64,000 nucleotides of DNA from Eledone cirrhosa (GCA_964016885.1 OZ024750.1:40734001-40798000); one strand, 5' to 3'; counted from the stretch's first letter, positions 1-28,017 are shown. Numbers and translations are program-made. The notes: generated by a model not told the origin, from the sequence alone.

Positions 1-558
1 TTCTTAGCGTCGTGTCTCTTTTGATTTCTTGTGGGGAGGTGATTGTGAAGTCTCCTCCTTCTTTGAAAGTTACATACTGTTTCGCTTCCTTCATCTTTTC
101 TCTCAGAGTTGTAATGTCCAGTTGCTTGCAGGTTTGTGTTTTCCGGACCGCCTGTGCAAAGGAGGCACCAGTAGTGGGTTCGCTTTGTTTGGTGTTATCG
201 TTATTTTTTCCTTGGTTGGTGTTGTGACTATTGCTGTTATTGTCGTTGTTGTTTTTGTCTGCGTTTATGTGACTTTCTGGGTTTTCACCCATTTTTACAA
301 ATTTTTCTTTTAATTCCGTGTTCCATGTTTCTTTTGCAGAAGTCAGGAGGGAAGACTTAGAGCCTTGTGCTTCTAGCTTCTCTGTATCACCTTTCTTAGG
401 GGGCGTGGCTTTCACGTTAGGATGAGATGTGAAAATTCCGTCCATTTCTATTAGTTTGCCGTAATAAATTTTAAACTGGAAAATTCGCCCCAAAAAGGGG
501 CGAAAATGAATAAACTCAAAGTTTGACGACCAAGGCAAGGGGTTAACGTATATTACAG

Positions 559-594
<36 letters not shown>

Positions 595-677
595 CAAAAC
601 TCACTTTTTGAGTAAGTAAATCCGACTCGGTAGCCAAGCTTGTTCACACACGTCAACACACGTCTCTCGTATACGAG
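1..677 (-). mobile_element. Tx1/L1-type non-LTR retrotransposon, copy 0 (5' UTR and ORF1 N-terminus; continues beyond window start)
   Basis: Near-identical to 5721-6376 and ~12062-12738; ORF1 ATG (MDGIFTSH) at 445; same 5' junction to the 72-bp repeat. Confidence 0.93.
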
Positions 678-742
678 ATGTTATGTGAGATATTATGTGA
701 GGTAAAGCCTTTACTGTGAAAATACAATAGTATATATAGAGT
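678..742. repeat. 65-bp partial unit of the 72-bp repeat separating two retrotransposon copies
   Basis: atgttatgtgagatattatgtgaggtaaagcctttactgtgaaaatacaatagtatatatagagt = 72-bp unit lacking aatgtaa; identical spacer at 12739-12803. Confidence 0.95.
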
Positions 743-979
743 GGTTTCTTTATTTGCCACTAGGGCACAAAAGGTAGGGACAGATACAAGGGGGGAAGTT
801 TACATATAATTAACGAGTACAAAAATATAACAATGAAATAACAACAACAAACGAAGTCCTCAATAGGGAGGGGGCATTAACATGGGTCGCACACACCCCG
901 GAAAAAATGTGTAACCCTTCTCCTCAGGAGCACAAAGAGTAGGTGCTTCCCTCGTCTCCTCTTTTTCCTCTTCTTTCAC

Positions 980-3900
980 CTACAGGCTGATATAGAGAGA
1001 AGACCCATTCACTCTGGCCATTCTCCCTACTTTCACCCACCTTTCATAAAACTTGCTGGGGTAGAGCACCTCTCTCTCCATTCTGATCCTTCTTTTAAAA
1101 TGGTATTTGAAAAAGGGGACCAGTTGTTGGCCGGAGAGAAAGGTGTCTGACCTCAGCCCTTTCAGCCTCGTCCACCATACAACTTCTTTAGCCATGGCTA
1201 CCACACAGAGAAAAACCGCCTCTCCTTCGTTTTTGAAAGGGGGAGGCGGTTTGATCGTGACAATGGACTCGGTGGTCAACCGGATTGGTCCCACCCTCGA
1301 CAGTAGTCGTTGCACATAGCCCCACAGGTCAGCAATGCCTGGGCAGTGTACGAATGCGTGCGCAACGGTTTCGTCATCATGCACGCATCTCGGACAGATC
1401 TTATTCAAAGGATCTCTACCCAGGCTCCCATGCCTGTGGAGCTTGTCTCGAACAGGTAGAGCCCCTCGGTAGCACTGCCAAGCCAGGGACTTTTGGAAGT
1501 TGTCCATCGGTCCAGGGCCAAACGTCCTACCGAACAGACTGGCCAGTTCATCTTCCTCCATGCCTAGAGCTTCTCCGAGAGCATCGTCGCACCTGCTGCA
1601 TACCAACCCTCTATAGAATGTCGAGGTGGAGTCTCCACTGATTGCCGGGTCCGCTTTCCAGAGGGCCGTGAGCGCCTGGGCACATTCAATGTGCCAGTCG
1701 CCCACTTTTCTCGGTCTTTGCTTGACCCAGGATTGCAGCTCGGTGAGCGAGACGAGTCTAGGAAAGGCTCGCCTCACAAACGGGGCCCACACCGGTTGAC
1801 CGGTGAGGAATACCTGGAGGTGCCGTAGCCTTAATGCGTGTTTACGCATCTGTAGCCACGGCATCCCCAGCCCTCCTTTCGAAGGGTGTTGACAGCAGAT
1901 GGATCTCCTCACCAAAGGGGTTCGCTTGTTCCAAAGAAATTGGAACAGCGCGCACTCCATTTTGGCGAGTCTTTTCACTGGGCAAGGCACGACGGTCAAG
2001 CGGTAGTAGATGACGGATGCTATATAAGTATTCGCCACCTCCGCTCGACCTTTCAGGGATAGTTTGCACTGGGCCCACTTCTGGGTGAGTGCAAACACCC
2101 TGGCCGTTACCTCGTTCCAGTTTTTCTCCACCTGGAGGTCTGGTCCGAACCAGACCCCAAGCAGCTTCACCGGGCCCTCCGTCCAGCGTCCGACGACGTC
2201 GTTGGAGGGCATCGGTTTGCCTCTCCATGTTCCGAGTTGCAAACCGACGGACTTGTCCCGGTTCAGCTTGACTCCTGTAAACCTTTCATATTCCTCCAGT
2301 AAGGTGCCGATCTCACCGATTTGCGAGGTTTTCGACACCATTACTGTCACGTCATCGGCGTAGGCCGACGCCGCTTTCTGCAATCCCGGTTCCAAAGGGA
2401 TGCCCTGCAACCGCTCCAACTTCCGCAGTAGTGGCTCAAGAGCCAGCACATACAGTAGGGAGGAGAGAGGGCATCCCTGTCGGATGGATCGCATGATTTG
2501 GAACGGCTCCGAGAGGTGGCCGTTCACCTTGACCCTTGAGCAGACGTTGCTGCTGTGCATCGCAGCAATCCAACCCCTGAAAACGGGTCCGAAGCCTGCC
2601 GCCGCGAGCACCGCATCCAGGTAACGATGGTCAACCCTATCGAAAGCTTTAGATTGATCCAAGTTGATCAGGGCCCCACCAAAGCCGGGTTCATTCCCTA
2701 CCCTCTCTATGATGTATCGCATAAGGTGGAGATTGTCGTGAATGGACCTGGACGGGATTGCGCATGTCTGCGCTTCTCCCACCAGGTTTCCAACGACAAG
2801 CGCCAACCTCTTCGCTAACACCTTGGCCAAAATCTTTAACTCTGTATTTAGCAGAGTTATGGGTCTGAAGTTACTTATGTCATCCCCCTTGTTCTCATCC
2901 TTCCTCACCAGCATAACTACGCCCTTGGTCACAGAACTGGGAATTCTCCCGTTCTGCTGCCAGTTGCAGTAGACCGCTTCGAGGATATCGGAGAACAAGT
3001 CCGGCATCGCTACATATAGCTCGTATGGTAGACCATCGAGACCCGGGGATTTGCGTTTGCCGCATTGGCTCAGCGCCGCCCCTATCTCAGCAGCTGAAAT
3101 CGTCCTTTCGCAGGACTTCGCGTCCGAGAGGCGCGGCAGACCGTCGAGGTATGGATTGAAATCCATAGTCTCACCCGGCGCGCCGCCCCTCTCGAACAGT
3201 CGTGCAAAGTGCCGCTGAAAGGCCGCACACATCTGCCCAGGTTCAAGGATCACACGCCCATCCTGGTCCTTCAAAGACCGAATCGTGGACTTGTTCCCAC
3301 TTTTTGCCTCTGTCACTCGGGCCCAGCTCACAGCTTTGGCTCCCTCATTACCCAGAGCACGTATTTTACTCCTGACAACGCAGCCTTCATGCTTCACCTC
3401 AAAGAACTGGTCTAAGGCCATTCTTGATGCCAGCACGCCGGCTACATTGCCACTCCTAATCGCCTCTTCTACTCTATCTACTAATTCCCTTTCCGTCTTG
3501 TTCCTATCCCTTGCTAATTCCTGACTAAAACCTATCGATTCTATTCTAATTGCTCTCTTAAGAGAGCTCCACCACCTGTTGTTGACAATTGCCCCTGTCA
3601 AACTCTGCTTAACTAACGTGCTAATCCGTTTACTGTAAGCTTTGCTTCTCGGTAAGGACAAGTTCAGCTTCCAGTAACCGGGTCCCTGTCTATGGGTTCT
3701 ATCAAGGTTGGCTATGCAGGTCACTAACTTGTGATCCGAATAGTCAACCATGAACATTTTTGGACAGCTAAATGTGTCCCTATCGTTCTCTCTAACTAGG
3801 ACCCTATCTAGGTACGACCTAGATGTTCCACTGCGATTGGTCCACGTCCATAGTGGTACAGTCGGAAAATCTAGTCGATATCTATCGGCCAGGTCAAATC

Positions 3901-4411
3901 GGCCGATTAACCTTTTGAGGCTTTTACACCCCCCTCTATTGGCACATGCCCCTACATAGTCCCAACGTGCATCCAGGATACCATTCCAGTCCCCCACTAA
4001 AAGCAAGGAGCGGGACGTTCCCAGAAAAGTTTCCAGACGTTGGAAGTATTCCGGCTGCGCTGCCCAAAAAGGGGCATACACAGCTATTAGTCTAAGGGCT
4101 CCACTTTCACTACTGCCGACGTCTAAAACCACCAGTCGACCCTCCGGGTCAAGGTGCACCTTCTGTATGGCGAGGCCCAGGTGTTTTTGCAGCAGAACGA
4201 CAACTCCACCCCCACCCCCCGGTTGACAGAGAGATGCGAAGATCTCAAAGTCGTCGAAGAGGGGCGCCAGTTGGTGCTCGCTGCTGATCCTGGACTCGCA
4301 AATAGCCATTACATCCATTCTATGCGACCTGAGATCGTTTAAAAGTTTGCCTTGTTTCCAAGACAGTCCCAGGCCACGTACATTCAGACACCCAACTCTT
4401 ATATCAGCCAT
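980..4411 (-). CDS. ORF2 polyprotein: APE endonuclease + reverse transcriptase + C-terminal Cys/His finger (1143 aa, intact)
   Basis: APE motifs LNVRG, AICE, VYAP, GDWN, YLDRV, YSDH; RT motifs SPGLDG, FRPITLLN, DQSKAFDRVDH, RQGCPLS, YADD, KLLGV; HPSKGGLG and CPRC...HAFVHC typical of L1/Tx1 ORF2. Confidence 0.96.
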   Translation of the reverse strand: MADIRVGCLNVRGLGLSWKQGKLLNDLRSHRMDVMAICESRISSEHQLAPLFDDFEIFASLCQPGGGGGVVVLLQKHLGLAIQKVHLDPEGRLVVLDVGSSESGALRLIAVYAPFWAAQPEYFQRLETFLGTSRSLLLVGDWNGILDARWDYVGACANRGGCKSLKRLIGRFDLADRYRLDFPTVPLWTWTNRSGTSRSYLDRVLVRENDRDTFSCPKMFMVDYSDHKLVTCIANLDRTHRQGPGYWKLNLSLPRSKAYSKRISTLVKQSLTGAIVNNRWWSSLKRAIRIESIGFSQELARDRNKTERELVDRVEEAIRSGNVAGVLASRMALDQFFEVKHEGCVVRSKIRALGNEGAKAVSWARVTEAKSGNKSTIRSLKDQDGRVILEPGQMCAAFQRHFARLFERGGAPGETMDFNPYLDGLPRLSDAKSCERTISAAEIGAALSQCGKRKSPGLDGLPYELYVAMPDLFSDILEAVYCNWQQNGRIPSSVTKGVVMLVRKDENKGDDISNFRPITLLNTELKILAKVLAKRLALVVGNLVGEAQTCAIPSRSIHDNLHLMRYIIERVGNEPGFGGALINLDQSKAFDRVDHRYLDAVLAAAGFGPVFRGWIAAMHSSNVCSRVKVNGHLSEPFQIMRSIRQGCPLSSLLYVLALEPLLRKLERLQGIPLEPGLQKAASAYADDVTVMVSKTSQIGEIGTLLEEYERFTGVKLNRDKSVGLQLGTWRGKPMPSNDVVGRWTEGPVKLLGVWFGPDLQVEKNWNEVTARVFALTQKWAQCKLSLKGRAEVANTYIASVIYYRLTVVPCPVKRLAKMECALFQFLWNKRTPLVRRSICCQHPSKGGLGMPWLQMRKHALRLRHLQVFLTGQPVWAPFVRRAFPRLVSLTELQSWVKQRPRKVGDWHIECAQALTALWKADPAISGDSTSTFYRGLVCSRCDDALGEALGMEEDELASLFGRTFGPGPMDNFQKSLAWQCYRGALPVRDKLHRHGSLGRDPLNKICPRCVHDDETVAHAFVHCPGIADLWGYVQRLLSRVGPIRLTTESIVTIKPPPPFKNEGEAVFLCVVAMAKEVVWWTRLKGLRSDTFLSGQQLVPFFKYHFKRRIRMEREVLYPSKFYERWVKVGRMARVNGSSLYISL

Positions 4412-4432
4412 GTTGGTTAAAAGAGGAAGGAC

Positions 4433-6165
4433 CTACCTGTTCGGTTCCTGAGGAGCAGGTTGCACAATATCCATGGGCGTATTGGAGGGGTTGTTTGGTG
4501 GGGTGTTGTTCTGTGGTGGAGTGGGGGTGTTTGGTGAGGTGTGGGTGGGGAAACGTTTCAAGAGGACGCGGTTATAGGGTCGAGTACATGTTTTCCCCAC
4601 GTCCTCAGGAAAGTTCTCTCTTAGTTTTGCATAGGTGTCCATTGGGAGTCTTATCATTTTTAAATGCGGTTTGTTGGCCGCGCTTGCAAAGAATTGCCCT
4701 TCAGTTTCCACCAAAGGGTCTTTGTGTATTGTTTTTACTAGTTCTTTGTTATTTGTGTTAATGTATGTATACTGTTTTATTTGTGTTGTGTTTGTTTGTT
4801 GTTCTTGTGTGTGCTTACGTTTTGTTGTATGTGTTATGTTTTGGGGTGGGGCGGATTTTGTTTGTTCTGTTTGTTTTGTTTTTGTTGGTGGTTGTGTGTT
4901 TGTTTCGTTTATGTTCGAGTGGTGCTTTCTTTTTTTTTCCTTTTTACAGGTTGGAAGGGTTCCCCCTCTTCGTCACTAGGTGCCGTTTCCGCTGGGTCCT
5001 CGTCCGTGCTGTCGGGTAGTGGTGTATTTTGGGGTTTTGTTGTACTTGTGTGTGTTTTGGGAGTTGTTTTGGGTGGGGCCGTGTCTTGTGTTATTTTTCC
5101 GTGTTGTTTTTGTTGTTGTAGTGGTGGTGGTGGTGGTGGTGGTGGTGGCGGTGGTGGTGTGTGGGGTGTAGGCAAAAGAGCCTTTTTTTTTGTCAATTGA
5201 GGACAAGCAGCCCTTAGATGACCCCTGCTTGAACAGTAGTAACATATGGGCCTCCTACCCTCGGCTGAAATATATATAAATGTTTCTCCATCGAGGGACA
5301 CCTTCTGTGGTATTCTAGCTATTCGTTCTGGTTTCATTTGGACCAGAACCTCCACGCTCAAACCGCCGAAAACGTCTGTGGTGACTTCTCCTACTGAGAG
5401 GATTCCGTCCTCGTCTTCTAAAAATCCTGTTAGTACCCAGGAAATGCATGCATTTGGCCGGATTCCGGAGACCCTTATCTTCTGCGTTCTTTTCCCTAAA
5501 TATGTGGGGAAAAATGTATGTAGCTTGGAAACAATTGGTGCCACAGAGTATTTCCTGGCCGTCAATTGATCCTTCATTAGGACCGTTATATTCCCATAGA
5601 GTGGCCCTTTTTGTATGAACGATATATCACTCCACACATTTTTTAGGACCAGCTCAATCTCTTTTTGGGATAATTGAGTTGGTTTCCTTGTTATGTTGGA
5701 AATTGTTCTGAAAGATATCGTTCTTAGCGTCGTGTCTCTTTTGATTTCTTGTGGGGAGGTGATTGTGAAGTCTCCTCCTTCTTTGAAAGTTACATACTGT
5801 TTCGCTTCCTTCATCTTTTCTCTCAGAGTTGTAATGTCCAGTTGCTTGCAGGTTTGTGTTTTCCGGACCGCCTGTGCAAAGGAGGCACCAGTAGTGGGTT
5901 CGCTTTGTTTGGTGTTATCGTTATTTTTTCCTTGGTTGGTGTTGTGACTATTGCTGTTATTGTCGTTGTTGTTTTTGTCTGCGTTTATGTGACTTTCTGG
6001 GTTTTCACCCATTTTTACAAATTTTTCTTTTAATTCCGTGTTCCATGTTTCTTTTGCAGAAGTCAGGAGGGAAGACTTAGAGCCTTGTGCTTCTAGCTTC
6101 TCTGTATCACCTTTCTTAGGGGGCGTGGCTTTCACGTTAGGATGAGATGTGAAAATTCCGTCCAT
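4433..6165 (-). CDS. ORF1 gag-like nucleic-acid-binding protein (~576 aa if corrected), frameshifted at A9 run 4930-4938
   Basis: CX2CX4HX4C knuckle CYYCSSRGHLRAAC, Pro/Thr-rich tail; split into ORFs 4909..6258 and 4433..4714; copy 2 has A7 here and reads through. Confidence 0.85.
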
Positions 6166-6376
6166 TTCTATTAGTTTGCCGTAATAAATTTTTAACTGGA
6201 AAATTCGCCCCAAAAAGGGGCGAAAATAAATAAACTCAAAGTTTGACGACCAAGGCAAGGGGTTAACGTATATTACAGTATAAAAAAATTAATCAAAACT
6301 CACTTTTTGAGTAAGTAAATCCGACTCGGTAGCCGAGCTTGTTCACACACGTCAACACACGTCTCTCGTATACGAG

Positions 6377-7089
6377 ATGTTATGTGAGATATTATGTGAG
6401 GTAAAGCCTTTACTGTGAAAATACAATAGTATATATAGAGTAATGTAAATGTTATGTGAGATATTATGTGAGGTAAAGCCTTTACTGTGAAAATACAATA
6501 GTATATATAGAGTAATGTAAATGTTCTGTGAGATATTATGTGAGGTAAAGCCTTTACTGTGAAAATACAATAGTATATATAGAGTAATGTAAATGTTCTG
6601 TGAGATATTATGTGAGGTAAAACCTTTACTGTGAAAATACAATAGTATATATAGAGTAATGTAAATGTTATGTGAGATATTATGTGAGGTAAAACCTTTA
6701 CTGTGAAAATACAATAGTATATATAGAGTAATGTAAATGTTATGTGAGATATTATGTGAGGTAAAGCTTTTACTGTGAAAATACAATAGTATATATAGAG
6801 TAATGTAAATGTTATGTGAGATATTATGTGAGGTAAAGCTTTTACTGTGAAAATACAATAGTATATATAGAGTAATGTAAATGTTATATGAGATATTATG
6901 TGAAGTAAAGCCTTTACTGTGAAAATACAATAGTATATATAGAGTAATGTAAATGTTATGTGAGATATTATGTGAGGTAAAGCCTTTACTGTGAAAATAC
7001 AATAGTATATATAGAGTAATGTAAATGTTATGTGAGATATTATGTGAGGTAAAGCCTTTACTGTGAAAATACAATAGTATATATAGAGT
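6377..7089. repeat. 72-bp tandem repeat, 10 units minus 7 bp (713 bp), MITE-derived
   Basis: Exact 72-bp period (gttatgtgag at 6379, 6451, ...). Confidence 0.97.
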
Positions 7090-7326
7090 GGTTTCTTTAT
7101 TTGCCACTAGGGCACAAAAGGTAGGGACAGATACAAGGGGGGAAGTTTACATATAATTAACGAGTACAAAAATATAACAATGAAATAACAACAACAAACG
7201 AAGTCCTCAATAGGGAGGGGGCATTAACATGGGTCGCACACACCCCGGAAAAAATGTGTAACCCTTCTCCTCAGGAGCACAAAGAGTAGGTGCTTCCCTC
7301 GTCTCCTCTTTTTCCTCTTCTTTCAC

Positions 7327-10300
7327 CTACAAGCTGATATAGAGAGAAGACCCATTCACTCTGGCCATTCTCCCTACTTTCACCCACCTTTCATAAAACT
7401 TGCTGGGGTAGAGCACCTCTCTCTCCATTCTGATCCTTCTTTTAAAATGGTATTTGAAAAAGGGGACCAGTTGTTGGCCGGAGAGAAAGGTGTCTGACCT
7501 CAGCCCTTTCAGCCTCGTCCACCATACAACTTCTTTAGCCATGGCTACCACACAGAGAAAAACCGCCTCTCCTTCGTTTTTGAAAGGGGGAGGCGGTTTG
7601 ATCGTGACAATGGACTCGGTGGTCAACCGGATTGGTCCCACCCTCGACAGTAGTCGTTCCACATAGCCCCACAGGTCAGCAATGCCTGGGCAGTGTACGA
7701 ATGCGTGCGCAACGGTTTCGTCATCATGCACGCATCTCAGACAGATCTTATTCAAAGGATCTCTACCCAGGCTCCCATGCCTGTGGAGCTTGTCTCGAAC
7801 GGGTAGAGCCCCTCGGTAGCACTGCCAAGCCAGGGACTTTTGGAAGTTGTCCATCGGTCCAGGGCCAAACGTCCTACCGAACAGACTGGCCAGTTCAACT
7901 TCCTCCATGCCTAGAGCTTCTCCGAGAGCATCGTCGCACCTGCTGCGTACCAACCCTCTATAGAATGTCGAGGTGGAGTCTCCACTGATTGCCGGGTCCG
8001 CTTTCCAGAGGGCCGTGAGCGCCTGGGCACATTCAATGTGCCAGTCGCCCGCTTTTCTCGGTCTTTGCTTGACCCAGGATTGCAGCTCGGTGAGCGAGAC
8101 GAGTCTGGGAAAGGCTCGCCTCACAAACGGGGCCCACACCGGTTGACCGGTGAGGAATACCTGGAGGTGCCGTAGCCTTAATGCGTGTTTACGCATCTGT
8201 AGCCACGGCATCCCCAGCCCTCCTTTCGAAGGGTGTTGACAGCAGATGGATCTCCTCACCAAAGGGGTCCGCTTGTTCCAAAGAAATTGGAACAGCGCGC
8301 ACTCCATTTTGGCGAGTCTTTTCACTGGGCAAGGCACGACGGTCAAGCGGTAGTAGATGACGGATGCTATATAAGTATTCGCCACCTCCGCTCGACCTTT
8401 CAGGGATAGTTTGCACTGGGCCCACTTCTGGGTGAGTGCAAACACCCTGGCCGTTACCTCGTTCCAGTTTTTCTCCACCTGGAGGTCTGGTCCGAACCAG
8501 ACCCCAAGCAGCTTCACCGGGCCCTCCGTCCAGCGTCCGACGACGTCGTTGGAGGGCATCGGTTTGCCTCTCCATGTTCCGAGTTGCAAACCGACGGACT
8601 TGTCCCGGTTCAGCTTGGCTCCTGTAAACCTTTCATATTCCTCCAGTAAGGTGCCGATCTCACCGATTTGCGAGGTTTTCGACACCATTACTGTCACGTC
8701 ATCGGCGTAGGCCGACGCCGCTTTCTGCAATCCCGGTTCCAAAGGGATGCCCTGCAACCGCTCCAACTTCCGCAGTAGTGGCTCAAGAGCCAGCACATAC
8801 AGTAGGGAGGAGAGAGGGCATCCCTGTCGGATGGATCGCATGATTTGGAACGGCTCCGAGAGGTGGCCGTTCACCTTGACCCTTGAGCAGACGTTGCTGC
8901 TGTGCATCGCAGCAATCCAACCCCTGAAAACGGGTCCGAAGCCTGCCGCCGCGAGCACCGCATCCAGGTAACGATGGTCAACCCTATCGAAAGCTTTAGA
9001 TTGATCCAAGTTGATCAGGGCCCCACCAAAGCCGGGTTCATTCCCTACCCTCTCTATGATGTATCGCATAAGGTGGAGATTGTCGTGAATGGACCTGGAC
9101 GGGATTGCGCATGTCTGCGCTTCTCCCACCAGGTTTCCAACGACAAGCGCCAACCTCTTCGCTAACACCTTGGCCAAAATCTTTAACTCTGTATTTAGCA
9201 GAGTTATGGGCCTGAAGTTACTTATGTCATCCCCCTTGTTCTCATCCTTCCTCACCAGCGTAACTACGCCCTTGGTCACAGAACTGGGAATTCTCCCGTT
9301 CTGCTGCCAGTTGCAGTAGACCGCTTCGAGGATATCGGAGAACAAGTCCGGCATCGCTACATATAGCTCGTATGGTAGACCATCGAGACCCGGGGATTTG
9401 CGTTTGCCGCATTGGCTCAGCGCCGCCCCTATCTCAGCAGCTGAAATCGTCCTTTCGCAGGACTTCGCCTCCGCGTCCGAGAGGCGCGGCAGACCGTCGA
9501 GGTATGGATTGAAATCCATAGTCTCACCCGGCGCGCCGCTCCTCTCGAACAGTCGTGCAAAGTGCCGCTGAAAGGCCGCACACATCTGCCCAGGTTCAAG
9601 GATCACACGCCCATCCTGGTCCTTCAAAGACCGAATCGTGGACTTGTTCCCACTTTTTGCCTCTGTCACTCGGGCCCAGCTTACAGCTTTGGCTCCCTCA
9701 TTACCCAGAGCACGTATTTTACTTCTGACAACGCAGCCTTCATGCTTCACCTCAAAGAACTGGTCTAAGGCCATTCTTGATGCCAGCACGCCGGCTACAT
9801 TGCCACTCCTAATCGCCTCTTCTACTCTATCTACTAATTCCCTTTCCGTCTTGATCCTATCCCTTGCTAATTCCTGACTAAAACCTATCGATTCTATTCT
9901 AATTGCTCTCTTAAGAGAGCTCCACCACCTGTTGTTGACAATTGCCCCTGTCAAACTCTGCTTAACTAACGTGCTAATCCGTTTACTGTAAGCTTTGCTT
10001 CTCGGTAAGGACAAGTTCAGTTTCCAGTAACCGGGTCCCTGTCTATGGGTTCTATCAAGGTTGGCTATGCAGGTCACTAACTTGTGATCCGAATAGTCAA
10101 CCATGAACATTTTTGGACAGCTAAATGTGTCCCTATCGTTCTCTCTAACTAGGACCCTATCTAGGTACGACCTAGATGTTCCACTGCGATTGGTCCACGT
10201 CCATAGTGGTACAGTCGGAAAATCTAGTCGATATCTATCGGCCAGGTCAAATCGGCCGATTAACCTTTTGAGGCTTTTACACCCCCCTCTATTGGCACAT

Positions 10301-10764
10301 GCCCCTACATAGTCCCAACGTGCATCCAGGATACCATTCCAGTCCCCCACTAAAAGCAAGGAGCGGGACGTTCCCAGAAAAGTTTCCAGACGTTGGAAGT
10401 ATTCCGGCCGCGCTGCCCAAAAAGGGGCGTACACAGCTATTAGTCTAAGGGCTCCACTTTCACTACTGCCGACGTCTAAAACCACCAGTCGACCCTCCGG
10501 GTCCAGGTGCACCTTCTGTATGGCGAGGCCCAGGTATTTTCGCAGCAGAACGACAACTCCACCCCCACCCCCCGGTTGACAGAGAGATGCGAAGATCTCA
10601 AAGTCGTCGAAGAGGGGCGCCAGTTGGTGCTCGCTGCTGATCCTGGACTCGCAAATAGCCATTACATCCATTCTATGCGACCTGAGATCGTTTAAAAGTT
10701 TGCCTTGTTTCCAAGACAGTCCCAGGCCACGTACATTCAGACACCCAACTCTTATATCAGCCAT
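7327..10764 (-). CDS. ORF2 APE+RT+Zn finger (1145 aa, intact)
   Basis: Same motifs as copy 1; CLRC instead of CPRC. Confidence 0.96.
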   Translation of the reverse strand: MADIRVGCLNVRGLGLSWKQGKLLNDLRSHRMDVMAICESRISSEHQLAPLFDDFEIFASLCQPGGGGGVVVLLRKYLGLAIQKVHLDPEGRLVVLDVGSSESGALRLIAVYAPFWAARPEYFQRLETFLGTSRSLLLVGDWNGILDARWDYVGACANRGGCKSLKRLIGRFDLADRYRLDFPTVPLWTWTNRSGTSRSYLDRVLVRENDRDTFSCPKMFMVDYSDHKLVTCIANLDRTHRQGPGYWKLNLSLPRSKAYSKRISTLVKQSLTGAIVNNRWWSSLKRAIRIESIGFSQELARDRIKTERELVDRVEEAIRSGNVAGVLASRMALDQFFEVKHEGCVVRSKIRALGNEGAKAVSWARVTEAKSGNKSTIRSLKDQDGRVILEPGQMCAAFQRHFARLFERSGAPGETMDFNPYLDGLPRLSDAEAKSCERTISAAEIGAALSQCGKRKSPGLDGLPYELYVAMPDLFSDILEAVYCNWQQNGRIPSSVTKGVVTLVRKDENKGDDISNFRPITLLNTELKILAKVLAKRLALVVGNLVGEAQTCAIPSRSIHDNLHLMRYIIERVGNEPGFGGALINLDQSKAFDRVDHRYLDAVLAAAGFGPVFRGWIAAMHSSNVCSRVKVNGHLSEPFQIMRSIRQGCPLSSLLYVLALEPLLRKLERLQGIPLEPGLQKAASAYADDVTVMVSKTSQIGEIGTLLEEYERFTGAKLNRDKSVGLQLGTWRGKPMPSNDVVGRWTEGPVKLLGVWFGPDLQVEKNWNEVTARVFALTQKWAQCKLSLKGRAEVANTYIASVIYYRLTVVPCPVKRLAKMECALFQFLWNKRTPLVRRSICCQHPSKGGLGMPWLQMRKHALRLRHLQVFLTGQPVWAPFVRRAFPRLVSLTELQSWVKQRPRKAGDWHIECAQALTALWKADPAISGDSTSTFYRGLVRSRCDDALGEALGMEEVELASLFGRTFGPGPMDNFQKSLAWQCYRGALPVRDKLHRHGSLGRDPLNKICLRCVHDDETVAHAFVHCPGIADLWGYVERLLSRVGPIRLTTESIVTIKPPPPFKNEGEAVFLCVVAMAKEVVWWTRLKGLRSDTFLSGQQLVPFFKYHFKRRIRMEREVLYPSKFYERWVKVGRMARVNGSSLYISL

Positions 10765-10785
10765 GTTGGTTAAAAGAGGAAGGAC

Positions 10786-12505
10786 CTACCTGTTCGGCTC
10801 CTGAGGAGCAGGTTGCACAATATCCATGGGCGTATTGGAGGGGTTGTTTGGTGGGGTGTTGTTCTGTGGTGGAGTGGGGGTGTTTGGTGAGGTGTGGGTG
10901 GGGAAACGTTTCAAGAGGACGCGGTTATAGGGTCGAGTACATGTTTTCCCCACGTCCTCAGGAAAGTTCTCTCTTAGTTTTGCATAGGTGTCCATTGGGA
11001 GTCTTATCATTTTTAAATGCGGTTTGTTGGCCGCGCTTGCAAAGAATTGCCCTTCAGTTTCCACCAAAGGGTCTTTGTGTATTGTTTTTACTAGTTCTTT
11101 GTTATTTGTGTTAATGTATGTATACTGTTTTATTTGTGTTGTGTTTGTTTGTTGTTCTTGTGTGTGCTTATGTTTTGTTGTATGTGTTATGTTTTGGGGT
11201 GGGGCGGATTTTGTTTGTTCTGTTTGTTTTGTTTTTGTTGGTGGTTGTGTGTTTGTTTCGTTTATGTTCGAGTGATGCTTTCTTTTTTTCCTTTTTACAG
11301 GTTGGAAGGGTTCCCCCTCTTCGTCACTAGGTGCCGTTTCCGCTGGGTCCTCGTCCGTGCTGTCGGGTAGTGGTGTATTTTGGGGTTTTGTTGTATTTGT
11401 GTGTGTTTTGGGAGTTGTTTTGGGTGGGGCCGTGTCTTGTGTTATTTTTCCGTGTTGTTTTTGTTGTTGTTGTTGTGGTGGTGGTGGTGGCGGTGGTGGT
11501 GTGTGGGGTGTAGGCAAAAGAGCCTTTTTTTTTTGTCAATTGAGGACAAGCAGCCCTTAGATGACCCCTGCTTGAACAGTAGTAACATATGGGCCTCCTA
11601 CCCTCGGCTGAAATATATATAAATGTTTCTCCATCGAGGGACACCTTCTGTGGTATTCTAGCTATTCGTTCTGGTCTCATTTGGACCAGAACCTCCACGC
11701 TCAAACCGCCGAAAACGTCTGTGGTGACTTCTCCTACTGAGAGGATTCCGTCCTCGTCTTCTAAAAATCCTGTTAGTACCCAGGAAATGCATGCATTTGG
11801 CCGGATTCCGGAGACCCTTATCTTCTGCGTTCTTTTCCCTAAATATGTGGGGAAAAATGTATGTAGCTTGGAAACAATTGGTGCCACAGAGTATTTCCTG
11901 GCCGTCAATTGATCCTTCATTAGGACCGTTATATTCCCATAGAGTGGCCCTTTTTGTATGAACGATATATCACTCCACACATTTTTTAGGACCAGCTCAA
12001 TCTCTTTTTGGGATAATTGAGTTGGTTTCCTTGTTATGTTGGAAATTGTTCTGAAAGATATCGTTCTTAGCGTCGCGTCTCTTTTGATTTCTTGTGGGGA
12101 GGTGATTGTGAAGTCTCCTCCTTCTTTGAAAGTTACATACTGTTTCGCTTCCTTCATCTTTTCTCTCAGAGTTGTAATGTCCAGTTGCTTGCAGGTTTGT
12201 GTTTTCCGGACCGCCTGTGCAAAGGAAGCACCAGTAGTGGGTTCGCTTTGTTTGGTGTTATCGTTATTTTTTCCTTGGTTGGTGTTGTGACTATTGCTGT
12301 TATTGTCGTTGTTTTTGTCTACGTTTATGTGACTTTCTGGGTTTTCACCCATTTTTACAAATTTTTCTTTTAATTCCGTGTTCCATGTTTCTTTTGCAGA
12401 AGTCAGGAGGGAAGACTTAGAGCCTTGTGCTTCTAGCTTCTCTGTATCACCTTTCTTAGGGGGCGTGGCTTTCACGTTAGGATGAGATGTGAAAATTCCG
12501 TCCAT
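10786..12505 (-). CDS. ORF1 gag-like CCHC protein, frameshifted at A10 run 11525-11534
   Basis: Split into ORFs 11327..12658 and 10786..11517; copies 1 and 3 have A9 at this site and stay in frame. Confidence 0.85.
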
Positions 12506-12618
12506 TTCTATTAGTTTGCCGTAATAAATTTTAAACTGGAAAATTCGCCCCAAAAAGGGGCGAAAATGAATAAACTCAAAGTTTGACGACCAAGGCAAGG
12601 GGTTAACGTATATTACAG

Positions 12619-12655
<37 letters not shown>

Positions 12656-12738
12656 CAAAACTCACTTTTTGAGTAAGTAAATCCGACTCGGTAGCCAAGC
12701 TTGTTCACACACGTCAACACACGTCTCTCGTATACGAG

Positions 12739-12803
12739 ATGTTATGTGAGATATTATGTGAGGTAAAGCCTTTACTGTGAAAATACAATAGTATATATAG
12801 AGT
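12739..12803. repeat. 65-bp partial unit of the 72-bp repeat
   Basis: Identical to 678-742. Confidence 0.95.
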
Positions 12804-13040
12804 GGTTTCTTTATTTGCCACTAGGGCACAAAAGGTAGGGACAGATACAAGGGGGGAAGTTTACATATAATTAACGAGTACAAAAATATAACAATGAAAT
12901 AACAACAACAAACGAAGTCCTCAATAGGGAGGGGGCATTAACATGGGTCGCACACACCCCGGAAAAAATGTGTAACCCTTCTCCTCAGGAGCACAAAGAG
13001 TAGGTGCTTCCCTCGTCTCCTCTTTTTCCTCTTCTTTCAC

Positions 13041-16000
13041 CTACAGGCTGATATAGAGAGAAGACCCATTCACTCTGGCCATTCTCCCTACTTTCACCCA
13101 CCTTTCATAAAACTTGCTGGGGTAGAGCACCTCTCTCTCCATTCTGATCCTTCTTTTAAAATGGTATTTGAAAAAGGGGACCAGTTGTTGGCCGGAGAGA
13201 AAGGTGTCTGACCTCAGCCCTTTCAGCCTCGTCCACCATACAACTTCTTTAGCCATGGCTACCACACAGAGAAAAACCGCCTCTCCTTCGTTTTTGAAAG
13301 GGGGAGGCGGTTTGATCGTGACAATGGACTCGGTGGTCAACCGGATTGGTCCCACCCTCGACAGTAGTCGTTGCACATAGCCCCACAGGTCAGCAATGCC
13401 TGGGCAGTGTACGAATGCGTGCGCAACGGTTTCGTCATCATGCACGCATCTCGGACAGATCTTATTCAAAGGATCTCTACCCAGGCTCCCATGCCTGTGG
13501 AGCTTGTCTCGAACAGGTAGAGCCCCTCGGTAGCACTGCCAAGCCAGGGACTTTTGGAAGTTGTCCATCGGTCCAGGGCCAAACGTCCTACCGAACAGAC
13601 TGGCCAGTTCATCTTCCTCCATGCCTAGAGCTTCTCCGAGAGCATCGTCGCACCTGCTGCGTACCAACCCTCTATAGAATGTCGAGGTGGAGTCTCCACT
13701 GATTGCCGGGTCCGCTTTCCAGAGGGCCGTGAGCGCCTGGGCACATTCAATGTGCCAGTCGCCCACTTTTCTCGGTCTTTGCTTGACCCAGGATTGCAGC
13801 TCGGTGAGCGAGACGAGTCTAGGAAAGGCTCGCCTCACAAACGGGGCCCACACCGGTTGACCGGTGAGGAATACCTGGAGGTGCCGTAGCCTTAATGCGT
13901 GTTTACGCATCTGTAGCCACGGCATCCCCAGCCCTCCTTTCGAAGGGTGTTGACAGCAGATGGATCTCCTCACCAAAGGGGTTCGCTTGTTCCAAAGAAA
14001 TTGGAACAGCGCGCACTCCATTTTGGCGAGTCTTTTCACTGGGCAAGGCACGACGGTCAAGCGGTAGTAGATGACGGATGCTATATAAGTATTCGCCACC
14101 TCCGCTCGACCTTTCAGGGATAGTTTGCACTGGGCCCACTTCTGGGTGAGTGCAAACACCCTGGCCGTTACCTCGTTCCAGTTTTTCTCCACCTGGAGGT
14201 CTGGTCCGAACCAGACCCCAAGCAGCTTCACCGGGCCCTCCGTCCAGCGTCCGACGACGTCGTTGGAGGGCATCGGTTTGCCTCTCCATGTTCCGAGTTG
14301 CAAACCGACGGACTTGTCCCGGTTCAGCTTGACTCCTGTAAACCTTTCATATTCCTCCAGTAAGGTGCCGATCTCACCGATTTGCGAGGTTTTCGACACC
14401 ATTACTGTCACGTCATCGGCGTAGGCCGACGCCGCTTTCTGCAATCCCGGTTCCAAAGGGATGCCCTGCAACCGCTCCAACTTCCGCAGTAGTGGCTCAA
14501 GAGCCAGCACATACAGTAGGGAGGAGAGAGGGCATCCCTGTCGGATGGATCGCATGATTTGGAACGGCTCCGAGAGGTGGCCGTTCACCTTGACCCTTGA
14601 GCAGACGTTGCTGCTGTGCATCGCAGCAATCCAACCCCTGAAAACGGGTCCGAAGCCTGCCGCCGCGAGCACCGCATCCAGGTAACGATGGTCAACCCTA
14701 TCGAAAGCTTTAGATTGATCCAAGTTGATCAGGGCCCCACCAAAGCCGGGTTCATTCCCTACCCTCTCTATGATGTATCGCATAAGGTGGAGATTGTCGT
14801 GAATGGACCTGGACGGGATTGCGCATGTCTGCGCTTCTCCCACCAGGTTTCCAACGACAAGCGCCAACCTCTTCGCTAACACCTTGGCCAAAATCTTTAA
14901 CTCTGTATTTAGCAGAGTTATGGGTCTGAAGTTACTTATGTCATCCCCCTTGTTCTCATCCTTCCTCACCAGCATAACTACGCCCTTGGTCACAGAACTG
15001 GGAATTCTCCCGTTCTGCTGCCAGTTGCAGTAGACCGCTTCGAGGATATCGGAGAACAAGTCCGGCATCGCTACATATAGCTCGTATGGTAGACCATCGA
15101 GACCCGGGGATTTGCGTTTGCCGCATTGGCTCAGCGCCGCCCCTATCTCAGCAGCTGAAATCGTCCTTTCGCAGGACTTCGCGTCCGAGAGGCGCGGCAG
15201 ACCGTCGAGGTATGGATTGAAATCCATAGTCTCACCCGGCGCGCCGCCCCTCTCGAACAGTCGTGCAAAGTGCCGCTGAAAGGCCGCACACATCTGCCCA
15301 GGTTCAAGGATCACACGCCCATCCTGGTCCTTCAAAGACCGAATCGTGGACTTGTTCCCACTTTTTGCCTCTGTCACTCGGGCCCAGCTCACAGCTTTGG
15401 CTCCCTCATTACCCAGAGCACGTATTTTACTCCTGACAACGCAGCCTTCATGCTTCACCTCAAAGAACTGGTCTAAGGCCATTCTTGATGCCAGCACGCC
15501 GGCTACATTGCCACTCCTAATCGCCTCTTCTACTCTATCTACTAATTCCCTTTCCGTCTTGTTCCTATCCCTTGCTAATTCCTGACTAAAACCTATCGAT
15601 TCTATTCTAATTGCTCTCTTAAGAGAGCTCCACCACCTGTTGTTGACAATTGCCCCTGTCAAACTCTGCTTAACTAACGTGCTAATCCGTTTACTGTAAG
15701 CTTTGCTTCTCGGTAAGGACAAGTTCAGCTTCCAGTAACCGGGTCCCTGTCTATGGGTTCTATCAAGGTTGGCTATGCAGGTCACTAACTTGTGATCCGA
15801 ATAGTCAACCATGAACATTTTTGGACAGCTAAATGTGTCCCTATCGTTCTCTCTAACTAGGACCCTATCTAGGTACGACCTAGATGTTCCACTGCGATTG
15901 GTCCACGTCCATAGTGGTACAGTCGGAAAATCTAGTCGATATCTATCGGCCAGGTCAAATCGGCCGATTAACCTTTTGAGGCTTTTACACCCCCCTCTAT

Positions 16001-16472
16001 TGGCACATGCCCCTACATAGTCCCAACGTGCATCCAGGATACCATTCCAGTCCCCCACTAAAAGCAAGGAGCGGGACGTTCCCAGAAAAGTTTCCAGACG
16101 TTGGAAGTATTCCGGCTGCGCTGCCCAAAAAGGGGCATACACAGCTATTAGTCTAAGGGCTCCACTTTCACTACTGCCGACGTCTAAAACCACCAGTCGA
16201 CCCTCCGGGTCAAGGTGCACCTTCTGTATGGCGAGGCCCAGGTGTTTTTGCAGCAGAACGACAACTCCACCCCCACCCCCCGGTTGACAGAGAGATGCGA
16301 AGATCTCAAAGTCGTCGAAGAGGGGCGCCAGTTGGTGCTCGCTGCTGATCCTGGACTCGCAAATAGCCATTACATCCATTCTATGCGACCTGAGATCGTT
16401 TAAAAGTTTGCCTTGTTTCCAAGACAGTCCCAGGCCACGTACATTCAGACACCCAACTCTTATATCAGCCAT
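13041..16472 (-). CDS. ORF2 APE+RT+Zn finger (1143 aa, intact)
   Basis: Same motifs as copy 1. Confidence 0.96.
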   Translation of the reverse strand: MADIRVGCLNVRGLGLSWKQGKLLNDLRSHRMDVMAICESRISSEHQLAPLFDDFEIFASLCQPGGGGGVVVLLQKHLGLAIQKVHLDPEGRLVVLDVGSSESGALRLIAVYAPFWAAQPEYFQRLETFLGTSRSLLLVGDWNGILDARWDYVGACANRGGCKSLKRLIGRFDLADRYRLDFPTVPLWTWTNRSGTSRSYLDRVLVRENDRDTFSCPKMFMVDYSDHKLVTCIANLDRTHRQGPGYWKLNLSLPRSKAYSKRISTLVKQSLTGAIVNNRWWSSLKRAIRIESIGFSQELARDRNKTERELVDRVEEAIRSGNVAGVLASRMALDQFFEVKHEGCVVRSKIRALGNEGAKAVSWARVTEAKSGNKSTIRSLKDQDGRVILEPGQMCAAFQRHFARLFERGGAPGETMDFNPYLDGLPRLSDAKSCERTISAAEIGAALSQCGKRKSPGLDGLPYELYVAMPDLFSDILEAVYCNWQQNGRIPSSVTKGVVMLVRKDENKGDDISNFRPITLLNTELKILAKVLAKRLALVVGNLVGEAQTCAIPSRSIHDNLHLMRYIIERVGNEPGFGGALINLDQSKAFDRVDHRYLDAVLAAAGFGPVFRGWIAAMHSSNVCSRVKVNGHLSEPFQIMRSIRQGCPLSSLLYVLALEPLLRKLERLQGIPLEPGLQKAASAYADDVTVMVSKTSQIGEIGTLLEEYERFTGVKLNRDKSVGLQLGTWRGKPMPSNDVVGRWTEGPVKLLGVWFGPDLQVEKNWNEVTARVFALTQKWAQCKLSLKGRAEVANTYIASVIYYRLTVVPCPVKRLAKMECALFQFLWNKRTPLVRRSICCQHPSKGGLGMPWLQMRKHALRLRHLQVFLTGQPVWAPFVRRAFPRLVSLTELQSWVKQRPRKVGDWHIECAQALTALWKADPAISGDSTSTFYRGLVRSRCDDALGEALGMEEDELASLFGRTFGPGPMDNFQKSLAWQCYRGALPVRDKLHRHGSLGRDPLNKICPRCVHDDETVAHAFVHCPGIADLWGYVQRLLSRVGPIRLTTESIVTIKPPPPFKNEGEAVFLCVVAMAKEVVWWTRLKGLRSDTFLSGQQLVPFFKYHFKRRIRMEREVLYPSKFYERWVKVGRMARVNGSSLYISL

Positions 16473-16493
16473 GTTGGTTAAAAGAGGAAGGAC

Positions 16494-18226
16494 CTACCTG
16501 TTCGGTTCCTGAGGAGCAGGTTGCACAATATCCATGGGCGTATTGGAGGGGTTGTTTGGTGGGGTGTTGTTCTGTGGTGGAGTGGGGGTGTTTGGTGAGG
16601 TGTGGGTGGGGAAACGTTTCAAGAGGACGCAGTTATAGGGTCGAGTACATGTTTTCCCCACGTCCTCAGGAAAGTTCTCTCTTAGTTTTGCATAGGTGTC
16701 CATTGGGAGTCTTATCATTTTTAAATGCGGTTTGTTGGCCGCGCTTGCAAAGAATTGCCCTTCAGTTTCCACCAAAGGGTCTTTGTGTATTGTTTTTACT
16801 AGTTCTTTGTTATTTGTGTTAATGTATGTATACTGTTTTATTTGTGTTGTGTTTGTTTGTTGTTCTTGTGTGTGCTTACGTTTTGTTGTATGTGTTATGT
16901 TTTGGGGTGGGGCGGATTTTGTTTGTTCTGTTTGTTTTGTTTTTGTTGGTGGTTGTGTGTTTGTTTCGTTTATGTTCGAGTGGTGCTTTCTTTTTTTTTC
17001 CTTTTTACAGGTTGGAAGGGTTCCCCCTCTTCGTCACTAGGTGCCGTTTCCGCTGGGTCCTCGTCCGTGCTGTCGGGTAGTGGTGTATTTTGGGGTTTTG
17101 TTGTACTTGTGTGTGTTTTGGGAGTTGTTTTGGGTGGGGCCGTGTCTTGTGTTATTTTTCCGTGTTGTTTTTGTTGTTGTAGTGGTGGTGGTGGTGGTGG
17201 TGGTGGTGGCGGTGGTGGTGTGTGGGGTGTAGGCAAAAGAGCCTTTTTTTTTGTCAATTGAGGACAAGCAGCCCTTAGATGACCCCTGCTTGAACAGTAG
17301 TAACATATGGGCCTCCTACCCTCGGCTGAAATATATATAAATGTTTCTCCATCGAGGGACACCTTCTGTGGTATTCTAGCTATTCGTTCTGGTTTCATTT
17401 GGACCAGAACCTCCACGCTCAAACCGCCGAAAACGTCTGTGGTGACTTCTCCTACTGAGAGGATTCCGTCCTCGTCTTCTAAAAATCCTGTTAGTACCCA
17501 GGAAATGCATGCATTTGGCCGGATTCCGGAGACCCTTATCTTCTGCGTTCTTTTCCCTAAATATGTGGGGAAAAATGTATGTAGCTTGGAAACAATTGGT
17601 GCCACAGAGTATTTCCTGGCCGTCAATTGATCCTTCATTAGGACCGTTATATTCCCATAGAGTGGCCCTTTTTGTATGAACGATATATCACTCCACACAT
17701 TTTTTAGGACCAGCTCAATCTCTTTTTGGGATAATTGAGTTGGTTTCCTTGTTATGTTGGAAATTGTTCTGAAAGATATCGTTCTTAGCGTCGTGTCTCT
17801 TTTGATTTCTTGTGGGGAGGTGATTGTGAAGTCTCCTCCTTCTTTGAAAGTTACATACTGTTTCGCTTCCTTCATCTTTTCTCTCAGAGTTGTAATGTCC
17901 AGTTGCTTGCAGGTTTGTGTTTTCCGGACCGCCTGTGCAAAGGAGGCACCAGTAGTGGGTTCGCTTTGTTTGGTGTTATCGTTATTTTTTCCTTGGTTGG
18001 TGTTGTGACTATTGCTGTTATTGTCGTTGTTGTTTTTGTCTGCGTTTATGTGACTTTCTGGGTTTTCACCCATTTTTACAAATTTTTCTTTTAATTCCGT
18101 GTTCCATGTTTCTTTTGCAGAAGTCAGGAGGGAAGACTTAGAGCCTTGTGCTTCTAGCTTCTCTGTATCACCTTTCTTAGGGGGCGTGGCTTTCACGTTA
18201 GGATGAGATGTGAAAATTCCGTCCAT
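16494..18226 (-). CDS. ORF1 gag-like CCHC protein, frameshifted at A9 run 16991-16999
   Basis: Same as copy 1. Confidence 0.85.
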
Positions 18227-18437
18227 TTCTATTAGTTTGCCGTAATAAATTTTTAACTGGAAAATTCGCCCCAAAAAGGGGCGAAAATAAATAAACTCAA
18301 AGTTTGACGACCAAGGCAAGGGGTTAACGTATATTACAGTATAAAAAAATTAATCAAAACTCACTTTTTGAGTAAGTAAATCCGACTCGGTAGCCGAGCT
18401 TGTTCACACACGTCAACACACGTCTCTCGTATACGAG

Positions 18438-19604
18438 ATGTTATGTGAGATATTATGTGAGGTAAAGCCTTTACTGTGAAAATACAATAGTATATATAGA
18501 GTAATGTAAATGTTATGTGAGATATTATGTGAGGTAAAGCCTTTACTGTGAAAATACAATAGTATATATAGAGTAATGTAAATGTTCTGTGAGATATTAT
18601 GTGAGGTAAAGCCTTTACTGTGAAAATACAATAGTATATATAGAGTAATGTAAATGTTCTGTGAGATATTATGTGAGGTAAAACCTTTACTGTGAAAATA
18701 CAATAGTATATATAGAGTAATGTAAATGTTATGTGAGATATTATGTGAGGTAAAACCTTTACTGTGAAAATACAATAGTATATATAGAGTAATGTAAATG
18801 TTATGTGAGATATTATGTGAGGTAAAGCTTTTACTGTGAAAATACAATAGTATATATAGAGTAATGTAAATGTTATGTGAGATATTATGTGAGGTAAAGC
18901 TTTTACTGTGAAAATACAATAGTATATATAGAGTAATGTAAATGTTATATGAGATATTATGTGAAGTAAAGCCTTTACTGTGAAAATACAATAGTATATA
19001 TAGAGTAATGTAAATGTTATGTGAGATATTATGTGAGGTAAAGCCTTTACTGTGAAAATACAATAGTATATATAGAGTAATGTAAATGTTATGTGAGATA
19101 TTATGTGAGGTAAAGCCTTTACTGTGAAAATACAATAGTATATATAGAGTAATGTAAATGTTATGTGAGATATTATGTGAGGTAAAGCCTTTACTGTGAA
19201 AATACAATAGTATATATAGAGTAATGTAAATGTTATGTGAGATATTATGTGAGGTAAAGCCTTTACTGTGAAAATACAATAGTATATATAGAGTAATGTA
19301 AATGTTATGTGAGATATTATGTGAGGTAAAGCCTTTACTGTGAAAATACAATAGTATATATAGAGTAATGTAAATGTTCTGTGAGATATTATGTGAGGTA
19401 AAGCCTTTACTGTGAAAATACAATAGTATATATAGAGTAATGTAAATGTTCTGTGAGATATTATGTGAGGTAAAACCTTTACTGTGAAAATACAATAGTA
19501 TATATAGAGTAATGTAAATGTTATGTGAGATATTATGTGAGGTAAAACCTTTACTGTGAAAATACAATAGTATAGATAGAATAATGTAAATGGTAAAGGG
19601 TTAA
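18438..19604. repeat. 72-bp tandem array (16 units, 18438-19589) ending in the piggyBac-like MITE terminus atggtaaagggTTAA
   Basis: 72-bp period; terminus matches MITE ends at 28212, 41461, 41855 and (reverse complement) 42880, 50232. Confidence 0.93.
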
Positions 19605-27770: not shown

Positions 27771-27997
27771 CTAACCTTTTACCATTCACATTACTCGATA
27801 TTTACTGTTGTAATTTTGTGGTAAAGGCTTTATCTCGCATAATATCTCACATAAGATCAAATCTATGAGATTTTGATAGTATTTATTTTGAGAACAATAC
27901 CTTAGCATCAGTATGAGTGACCTGTCAGGGCCGGTTTGAACAAAAGAGGTGAGAGAATTCTGGTCAGATACGGCCAGTTTAAATGCTAAAGGGTTAA
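27771..27997 (+). mobile_element. ~225-bp piggyBac-like MITE (family A), simple copy
   Basis: Ends (t)taaccYtttaccatt... / ...aaatgctaaagggttaa; contains one copy of the 72-bp unit sequence. Confidence 0.85.
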
Positions 27998-28017
27998 ATC
28001 CTAGTTTGCAGAATTCT

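Follow-up and report, generated by a model that had tools for sequence, protein, structure and literature searches.

A young site-specific LINE in the internal repeat of an old piggyBac MITE of Eledone cirrhosa

The 64,000-nt stretch of Eledone cirrhosa DNA described here (GCA_964016885.1, OZ024750.1:40734001-40798000; G000:C10:40734001-40798000 in our labels, and below the window) harbors a long interspersed nuclear element (LINE) inserted repeatedly at one position of a 72-bp repeat. The repeat forms tandem arrays inside a MITE (miniature inverted-repeat transposable element) of the piggyBac type. We consider it likely, though not assured, that a young LINE uses this one site in an old MITE, probably nicking the DNA there and employing an RNA bounded by target sequence, and that it switched recently to this target from microsatellites. 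The MITE is a passive, old host. An original prediction, made from the window alone, had described a young site-specific LINE of the L1/Tx1 group inside the tandem repeat of a non-autonomous piggyBac, and genome-wide searches support that part of it.

Site specificity and the window locus

Insertion sites were mapped across the 3.0-Gb genome with a LINE-only 27-mer for 3' ends and a 28-mer for 5' ends; both demanded exact matches, and the counts are lower bounds. The exact target junction was present at 238 of 281 LINE 3' ends. Chance is excluded as an explanation, because the genome offers about 46,000 such sites in 3.0 Gb and yet 238 of the 281 ends occupy one exactly. The fraction lies above the 20% of flanks beyond which a Tx1 element is said to have a target preference (PMC4494074). 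Unrelated flanks or random phase in the repeat do not characterize most of the mapped copies. The first 30 LINE-only matches, drawn from contigs C1 and C2 and including one six-copy cluster, comprise 28 that directly abut the site, one at the site, within a MITE array, with a different insertion 14 nt away, and one member of a sister family lying in (GATA)n; the 5' ends fall in the same unit phase in 30 of 30 cases inspected. Exact 5' motifs number 265 against 281 for the 3' motif, indicating that most copies are full length.

The LINE family is young. Among 35 full-length copies, pairwise distance has a median of 1.35% and ranges from 0.02 to 3.2%. Open frames occur in 8 of these copies for ORF1 (open reading frame 1), in 15 for ORF2 and in 5 for both, and intact ORF1 frames of 616-622 aa are present among genomic copies. 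Judged by these sequences, the family is probably still able to move. A search for expression listed no RNA data set containing it. In the match lists for C1 to C7, the MITE-targeting LINE gathers near the ends of large contigs (C1 0-31 and 431-434 Mb) and sister families in the interior; the MITEs themselves occur in both. An inserted sequence of about 400 bp, whose end we take to be Helitron-like, breaks the unit 14 nt from the LINE 3' junction at L102/L064 (G000:C2, about 395.871 Mb).

The entire locus is one TTAA-flanked piggyBac MITE of 30.7 kb that contains five LINE copies, and the window covers its right two-thirds. The other MITE end, expected upstream by the original prediction, was found 11.1 kb away. 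The features are as follows, with negative positions counted upstream of the window:

-11106 (G000:C10:40722894): left MITE end, TTAA
between the left MITE end and the window start: about 4 repeat units
-10684 to -5043: LINE copy U1
-4977 to 677, minus strand: LINE copy U2, its 5' end being window positions 1 to 677
678 to 742, no strand: spacer of 65 nt, one repeat unit minus 7 nt by junction phase
678 to 706: putative element-borne leader of U2, inside the 65-nt spacer
742/743: insertion site of LINE copy A
743 to 6376, minus strand: LINE copy A, 5634 bp, read from sequence
749 to 754, minus strand: AATAAA signal, preserved in sister families and 6 nt short of the 3' junction
980 to 4411, minus strand: ORF2 of copy A, 1143 aa, with an apurinic/apyrimidinic endonuclease (APE) domain bearing catalytic motifs, a reverse transcriptase (RT; YADD) and a C-terminal zf-RVT
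4433 to 6288, minus strand: ORF1 region of copy A, one CCHC knuckle, frameshift near 4938
6357 to 6364, minus strand: AGACGTGT motif, 13 nt inside the LINE, common to sister families, candidate promoter element
6377 to 6405, minus strand: probable target-derived leader of about 25-29 nt, from invariance
6377 to 7089, no strand: array of 10 repeat units, the last of 65 nt
7090 to 12738, minus strand: LINE copy B, 5649 bp, ORF2 intact at 7327-10764, ORF1 frameshifted
12739 to 12803, no strand: spacer of 65 nt
12804 to 18437, minus strand: LINE copy C, ORF2 at 13041-16472, local duplicate of A
18438 to 19587, no strand: array of 16 repeat units
19588 to 19600, no strand: right terminal inverted repeat of the piggyBac MITE, aaatggtaaaggg, one change from the common form
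19601 to 19604, no strand: TTAA target duplication
50232 to 50807, minus strand: another copy of this MITE, without a LINE and holding 6 units, the first old and the later ones of array type
60660 to 62274, plus strand: sister LINE copy with an internal deletion, at 83% nucleotide identity, inserted in a (TGTC)n-based repeat (left coordinate is approximate)

Unit alignment confirmed the seven predicted junctions and their common phase. Three LINE 3' ends follow unit position 65 (742/743, 7089/7090, 12803/12804), and four 5' ends precede unit position 1 (677/678, 6376/6377, 12738/12739, 18437/18438). The last array does run into the MITE terminus, with aaatggtaaaggg followed by TTAA, and ORF2 is indeed open in all three full copies (1143, 1145 and 1143 aa from the ATG in A, B and C), its domains present. 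ORF1 is frameshifted in each: compared with a genomic copy whose ORF1 is intact, insertions of 2, 1 and 2 nt lie near 4938, 11534 and 16999. The repeat, termed a satellite in the original prediction, is an internal tandem array of the MITE. A free satellite and an element-borne promoter array were both rejected: the repeat sits inside MITE ends, and only about 29 nt of it appear to travel with the LINE.

Substitutions relative to copy A number 2 in C, 6 in the partial copy and 35 in B, and the 713-bp middle array is identical to the opening 713 bp of the last one. The block thus arose in part by local duplication, as the original prediction had cautioned. That the five-copy block is partly an assembly artefact, a false duplication of A and C, is unlikely. 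The 99.87% identity of 1-7089 and 12064-19150 would fit such an error; against it, the copies differ at 2-35 positions and in homopolymer lengths, and similar tandem clusters occur at C1 4.22-4.26 Mb and C10 41.38-41.43 Mb. Such an artefact would leave the genome-wide conclusions unaffected. Public contigs compared with 12655-16000 contained pieces of LINE and MITE; they were set aside, since the best-matching ones may come from the sample used for the assembly and coverage of the second organism was thin. A separate MITE 33 kb upstream carries a single LINE copy on the opposite strand (L034:846-6480, window -39154 to -33520), with both ORFs open at 616 and 1152 aa. The window contains five more copies of this MITE, each with a single unit, within 27770-28212, 41234-41855 and 42880-43106.

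Tx1 elements are defined by an ORF1 with RNA-binding domains and a CCHC knuckle, unlike the mammalian L1 type. The zf-CCHC match in ORF1 fell below the cut-off (E 0.007), and Atlas look-alikes, CCHC and ZCCHC3-RBD clusters at 0.90-0.93, serve as a lead only. ORF2 carries the Pfam domains Exo_endo_phos, RVT_1 and zf-RVT, with the APE catalytic motifs located; human L1 ORF2p is the best relative with a solved structure, R2 lying far below it. Among named proteins, one from Argonauta hians comes nearest (68% over the RT), and a metagenome scan for the targets of more remote relatives (41% identical) returned only 4 distant loci. A quick RT tree, built on rows other than Xenopus Tx1L, Repbase Tx1 and human L1, groups the LINE with animal elements (fish, lancelet) and apart from plant L1, its deep forks being unsettled. 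Membership in the Tx1 clade of the L1 group is likely.

Junction structure and target switch

The 5' junction of full-length copies resembles either a 7-bp deletion or a 65-bp duplication. Flanking units were compared for 42 copies (46 attempted, four dropped for a 5' anchor mismatch), with the six-copy C1 cluster represented by two. Unit positions 1-29 were variable in 3 of 42 units adjacent to the 5' end against 20 of 36 next units (p=3e-6), whereas positions 30-65 varied alike (31/42 and 26/36). At positions 17-29, substitutions were found in 0 of 42 5'-adjacent units against 28 of 116. Variants carried by the 3'-side unit showed no preference for reappearing on the 5' side; near the site, 1 of 8 did so. 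Nineteen 3' ends had no listed 5' partner and were read by eye: 6 show truncation together with 1-18-bp duplications, another 10 approach full length, and the rest comprise one that is truncated but joined in leader phase, one that is interrupted and one of a sister family. The simplest reading is that about 25-29 nt of the supposed satellite travel with the LINE 5' end, in the manner of R2.

The alternative, that a second sequence-specific cut produces the uniform junction as a 65-bp duplication or 7-bp deletion with no RNA leader, seems quite improbable. It would accommodate the common phase of all full-length junctions and the single-unit host L104, where four private variants stand on both sides of the LINE and mark a true duplication. 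It does not accommodate the loss of local variants at positions 1-29 and their retention at 30-65, the 1-18-bp duplications of truncated copies, or 3'-unit variants that recur in the 5' unit no more often than in the one after it. A 65-bp duplication as the general rule was rejected on the flanking-unit variants, though L104 fits it. The identical 5' junctions stressed by the original prediction are therefore uniform in phase but are not independent evidence of a second cut, because the flank in question appears to travel with the LINE.

TATATATA occupies unit positions 54-61; read on the LINE sense strand, it precedes the start of the leader by about 31 nt. AGACGTGT fits the downstream promoter consensus of Drosophila LINEs (PMC1636488) and is a candidate only. 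At the 3' end, the AATAAA lies 6 nt before the junction and poly(A) is lacking, also in copy A, a combination that fits read-through pairing as in R2Ol. In all three families, a UAACCCC...GG motif followed by a GC hairpin lies 110-150 nt into the 5' untranslated region (UTR; window 6170-6270, minus strand). Family-specific pairing between leader and UTR was rejected, as pairing across families was equally strong and the fold z-score reached only -2.55.

On the basis of these patterns and of analogy with R2, insertion could proceed as follows. The APE domain would nick the plus strand at AGAGT/AATGT, and a transcript running past AATAAA into the downstream unit would pair with the nicked primer. 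That transcript would have started about 29 nt upstream, in the neighboring unit, with TATATATA about 31 nt before the start. The end of the complementary DNA would then anneal to the neighboring unit, giving the uniform junction and a net loss of 7 bp. Insertion into an adjacent unit would leave the 65-nt spacers, and unequal exchange could duplicate blocks of LINE plus array.

At L076/L116:556-1760 and L078 (G000:C1, about 10.988 and 11.026 Mb), the exact insertion site is joined to a fragment of an LTR (long terminal repeat) retroelement with a gag-like frame and a terminal repeat of about 270 bp. The L078 fragment is capped by 130 nt of LINE 5' end plus leader. These fragments may represent foreign RNA inserted in trans, possibly in one event later duplicated. 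A second LINE family at the same site was considered for them and rejected, the sequence being that of the LTR retroelement.

The target preference itself appears to have changed. A looser 3' motif retrieved 587 ends genome-wide, and 20 of 20 picked ends absent from the first list lie in microsatellite-like DNA, 13 in (TGTC)n and 7 in (TATC)n or (TC)n. The nearer sister families share 83-90% RT and 72-79% endonuclease identity with the MITE-targeting LINE, and RT identity falls to about 70% at the more distant locus L204. In a tree of the 3' region, where the row L209 sits on a long and unreliable branch, the MITE-targeting family nests among the microsatellite sisters with a bootstrap of 100. 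This nesting indicates that the microsatellite target is probably ancestral, and a recent switch from microsatellites to the MITE unit is likely.

Arrays and their MITE shells

The host has the hallmarks of a non-autonomous piggyBac, with TTAA on both sides and short terminal inverted repeats starting with CCC in the host copy. Its right-terminus motif has 11,282 exact occurrences. For 30 loci picked by the right end, a left arm was found within 1.5 kb in 22; 17 of these MITEs measure 204-229 bp, and the left TTAA is present in 16. A piggyBac transposase search returned 30 loci, among them 19 complete elements of 2.5-2.6 kb with ends matching the MITE, which are 0-5% apart and encode a DDE_Tnp_1_7 transposase, with the 561-aa ORF in 6 of 19. 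Identity to the MITE reaches 23 of 23 nt at one end (L190), and at the opposite end 16 terminal nt agree. From their sequences, this autonomous partner looks intact and recently active, and the MITE qualifies as a true but old non-autonomous piggyBac. In every class, its arms differ by about 9% from the column majority. Autonomous copies are found inside MITE copies at L194 (G000:C1:34023220-34027074) and L177, inserted at an internal TTAA near the left end.

The original prediction held that the MITE creates and disperses the landing pads and could carry the LINE as a composite. Such dispersal of arrays and LINE-containing composites by the MITE is very improbable. The model can appeal to the recently active autonomous piggyBac with matching ends and to the presence of both host ends with TTAA duplications. 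Against it, 41 of 47 resolved MITEs in a positional sample from C1 contain a single unit, the shells of every class are old, no arm column tells shells with arrays apart from those with one unit, and inner units are far younger than arms. No recent mobility of array- or LINE-bearing MITEs was seen in the partial sample, where arms are 13-15% apart. Among 43 LINE-bearing shells, about a fifth of LINE loci and thus a sample that rare moves could escape, no composite move was detected; the closest arm pair is 5.4% apart, whereas LINE copies approach one another to 0.02%. The window host arm has no other copy above 92% among the 40 scored of 3,529 candidates. An array-bearing MITE subfamily was likewise rejected for want of a diagnostic arm column.

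Age comparisons place the arrays after the shells. Single units are 15.7% apart (n=50), comparable to the arms. In 27 LINE-bearing arrays at unlinked loci, inner units are 2.0% apart against 15.4% for the arms; in 11 unselected, unlinked LINE-free arrays, the values are 5.9% and 13.1%. When one random unit is drawn per array, the distances become 4.4% (LINE-bearing) and 8.5% (LINE-free). With shells 13-15% apart and inner units 2-6% apart, the arrays post-date MITE transposition. The first units of 28 LINE-free arrays (17 of them selected by their terminal unit) are 13.7% apart, differ by at least 3 nt from their own inner units in 21 of 28, and can retain old variants as far as position 63, only two bases away from where the LINE inserts. 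None of 50 single units lies within 1 nt of the array type; array-type single units do exist, for of 51 resolved MITEs picked because their terminal unit is of array type, 30 have such a unit alone. We read the main dimorphism among units, at positions 38-41, as CpG decay. All arrays share junction and leader form. These sequence comparisons indicate that units passed from locus to locus by copying once MITE movement had ended, and that the additions were made at the LINE site or close to it.

The least certain step of the scheme follows from this pattern. Breaks at the LINE site might let array-type units copy into old single-unit MITEs, with RNA or another array as template and more targets as the outcome. 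Whether array growth depends on the LINE is, on the sequence evidence, close to an even call that leans slightly toward no. A bolder version, to which we give somewhat short of an even chance, has the LINE make its own target: after a move out of microsatellites and into a single MITE unit, its endonuclease and RT would have pasted this founder unit into many long-dead MITE shells, either as a 72-nt passenger resembling a short interspersed nuclear element (SINE) or through break repair. About 35,000 landing sites would have been created in this way, and each new site would also supply the LINE promoter and both RNA ends.

Alternatively, the LINE is site-specific but the arrays spread without it, through ectopic gene conversion or reintegration of circular DNA, and the LINE follows; this we find plausible, yet again not quite an even prospect. 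The unit-to-unit junction occurs 34,716 times genome-wide, roughly a hundredfold above the LINEs, no flank transduction was detected, and internal MITE arrays are well known without any LINE (PMC12628747). Moreover, neither the maker of the breaks nor the nature of the template, RNA or DNA, can be read from sequence alone. Less easily explained by independent spread are the old-to-new switch, which usually falls at the end of the first unit beside the LINE site and not at random, the junction and leader form common to all arrays, and an array age of 2-6%, of the same order as that of the LINE (median 1.35%, maximum 3.2%).

Several observations weigh against a LINE-driven scheme, in its insertion steps as well as in array growth. 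The steps from nicking to the 5' junction derive from junction patterns and analogy. The downstream-promoter spacing of AGACGTGT predicts a start at -16, not -29, and a ribozyme like that of hepatitis delta virus (HDV) was not found with Rfam or a simple descriptor, which a divergent form could escape. In pairs of near-identical LINEs, the sharing of flank variants does not exceed chance (permutation p 0.17-0.80, 25 copies), and routine transduction of whole flanking units with the LINE was not detected. The 34,716 array junctions face 281 LINE copies. LINE-free arrays are less uniform than LINE-bearing ones; apart from the selection by terminal unit noted above, their inner majority lies within 1 nt of the window unit in only 16 of 28, and some are simply the resident unit amplified in place (L224, L234). 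Finally, near the site, first units resemble the array type somewhat more than single units do (9/28 against 30/50, p=0.03).

Two other kinds of sequence lie in the window. A 478-aa frame at 53917-55353 (plus strand), with a partial RT followed by a PHD/C1-like finger, is probably the remnant of an RTE-type LINE. Long tandem arrays with no relation to the LINE and MITE system occupy 32952-36253, 21735-23170, 20680-21617 and 37216-38083, with units of 55, 29, 17 and 99 bp, respectively.

Relation to known systems and significance

In Xenopus, Tx1L reportedly inserts into internal tandem repeats of Tx1D with a fixed duplication. It is an APE-type LINE with a specific site in a non-autonomous piggyBac of Xenopus laevis (PMC4494074, PMC1950540, PMC6719617), so that a Tx1 element inside such a host is already known. 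The Eledone system is Tx1L/Tx1D-like with R2-like ends. Both LINEs occupy a fixed site inside a non-autonomous piggyBac, but the host lineages differ, and the Eledone family is nested among microsatellite-targeting sisters, so its target was probably gained independently of Tx1L. Full-length Eledone copies carry a leader and a net 7-bp loss in place of a fixed duplication, and no composite mobility, which the original prediction had thought possible, was seen in the shells sampled. Tx1-Mar, Tx1-9_AMi, Kibi/Koshi and the crocodilian (TTCC)n Tx1 prefer DNA transposons or microsatellites, and tandem copies sandwiching target sequence are known in those families (PMC4494074). Unlike them, close Eledone sisters show both target types within a single genome, and the target in the transposon is one unit of a tandem repeat.

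In R2, uniform 5' junctions arise from 9-36 nt of target sequence on the RNA, and a 7-bp deletion has been propagated in springtails (PMC3774820); R2Ol shows read-through pairing at the 3' end (PMC6795142). The Eledone LINE resembles R2 in the target-derived sequence at its 5' end, as suggested by invariance. R2, however, combines a restriction-like endonuclease with an HDV-like ribozyme, whereas the Eledone element carries two ORFs and an APE domain, and the ribozyme searches gave no match in it.

Tetris is said to be a MITE with internal satellite-like arrays. Xstir and miDNA4 are MITEs with one monomer or an array of variable length (PMC12628747), for which the available text offers local expansion or MITE-borne dispersal as models. 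In Eledone, by contrast, a shared young unit stands behind an old resident one in most arrays, at the LINE site. The annotation of Octopus vulgaris lists 13 recently active L1-Tx1 families, and the words 'target', 'nested' and 'satellite' are absent from the portion of that paper available (PMC13282606). Outside Repbase, subscription journals and supplements, which our literature search did not cover, neither a description of this LINE family nor LINE-driven array growth in MITEs was found; the family may already be in a repeat library.

Beyond the original prediction, the analysis adds an element-borne leader, a recent target switch and arrays younger than their shells. The switch is recent and well sampled, with three close APE-type LINE families that use different targets in one genome and have endonucleases 72-79% identical, and it makes the gain of a new APE-retrotransposon specificity directly testable. 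An APE element with precise, mostly full-length, R2-type insertion has a bearing on work toward targeted gene insertion. Were array growth to depend on the LINE, it would constitute a route to the birth of tandem repeats and to their homogenization across loci, one absent from the literature within the scope of our search. And should the LINE indeed make its own target, the 'satellite' would be the product of a retrotransposon and not of a DNA transposon.

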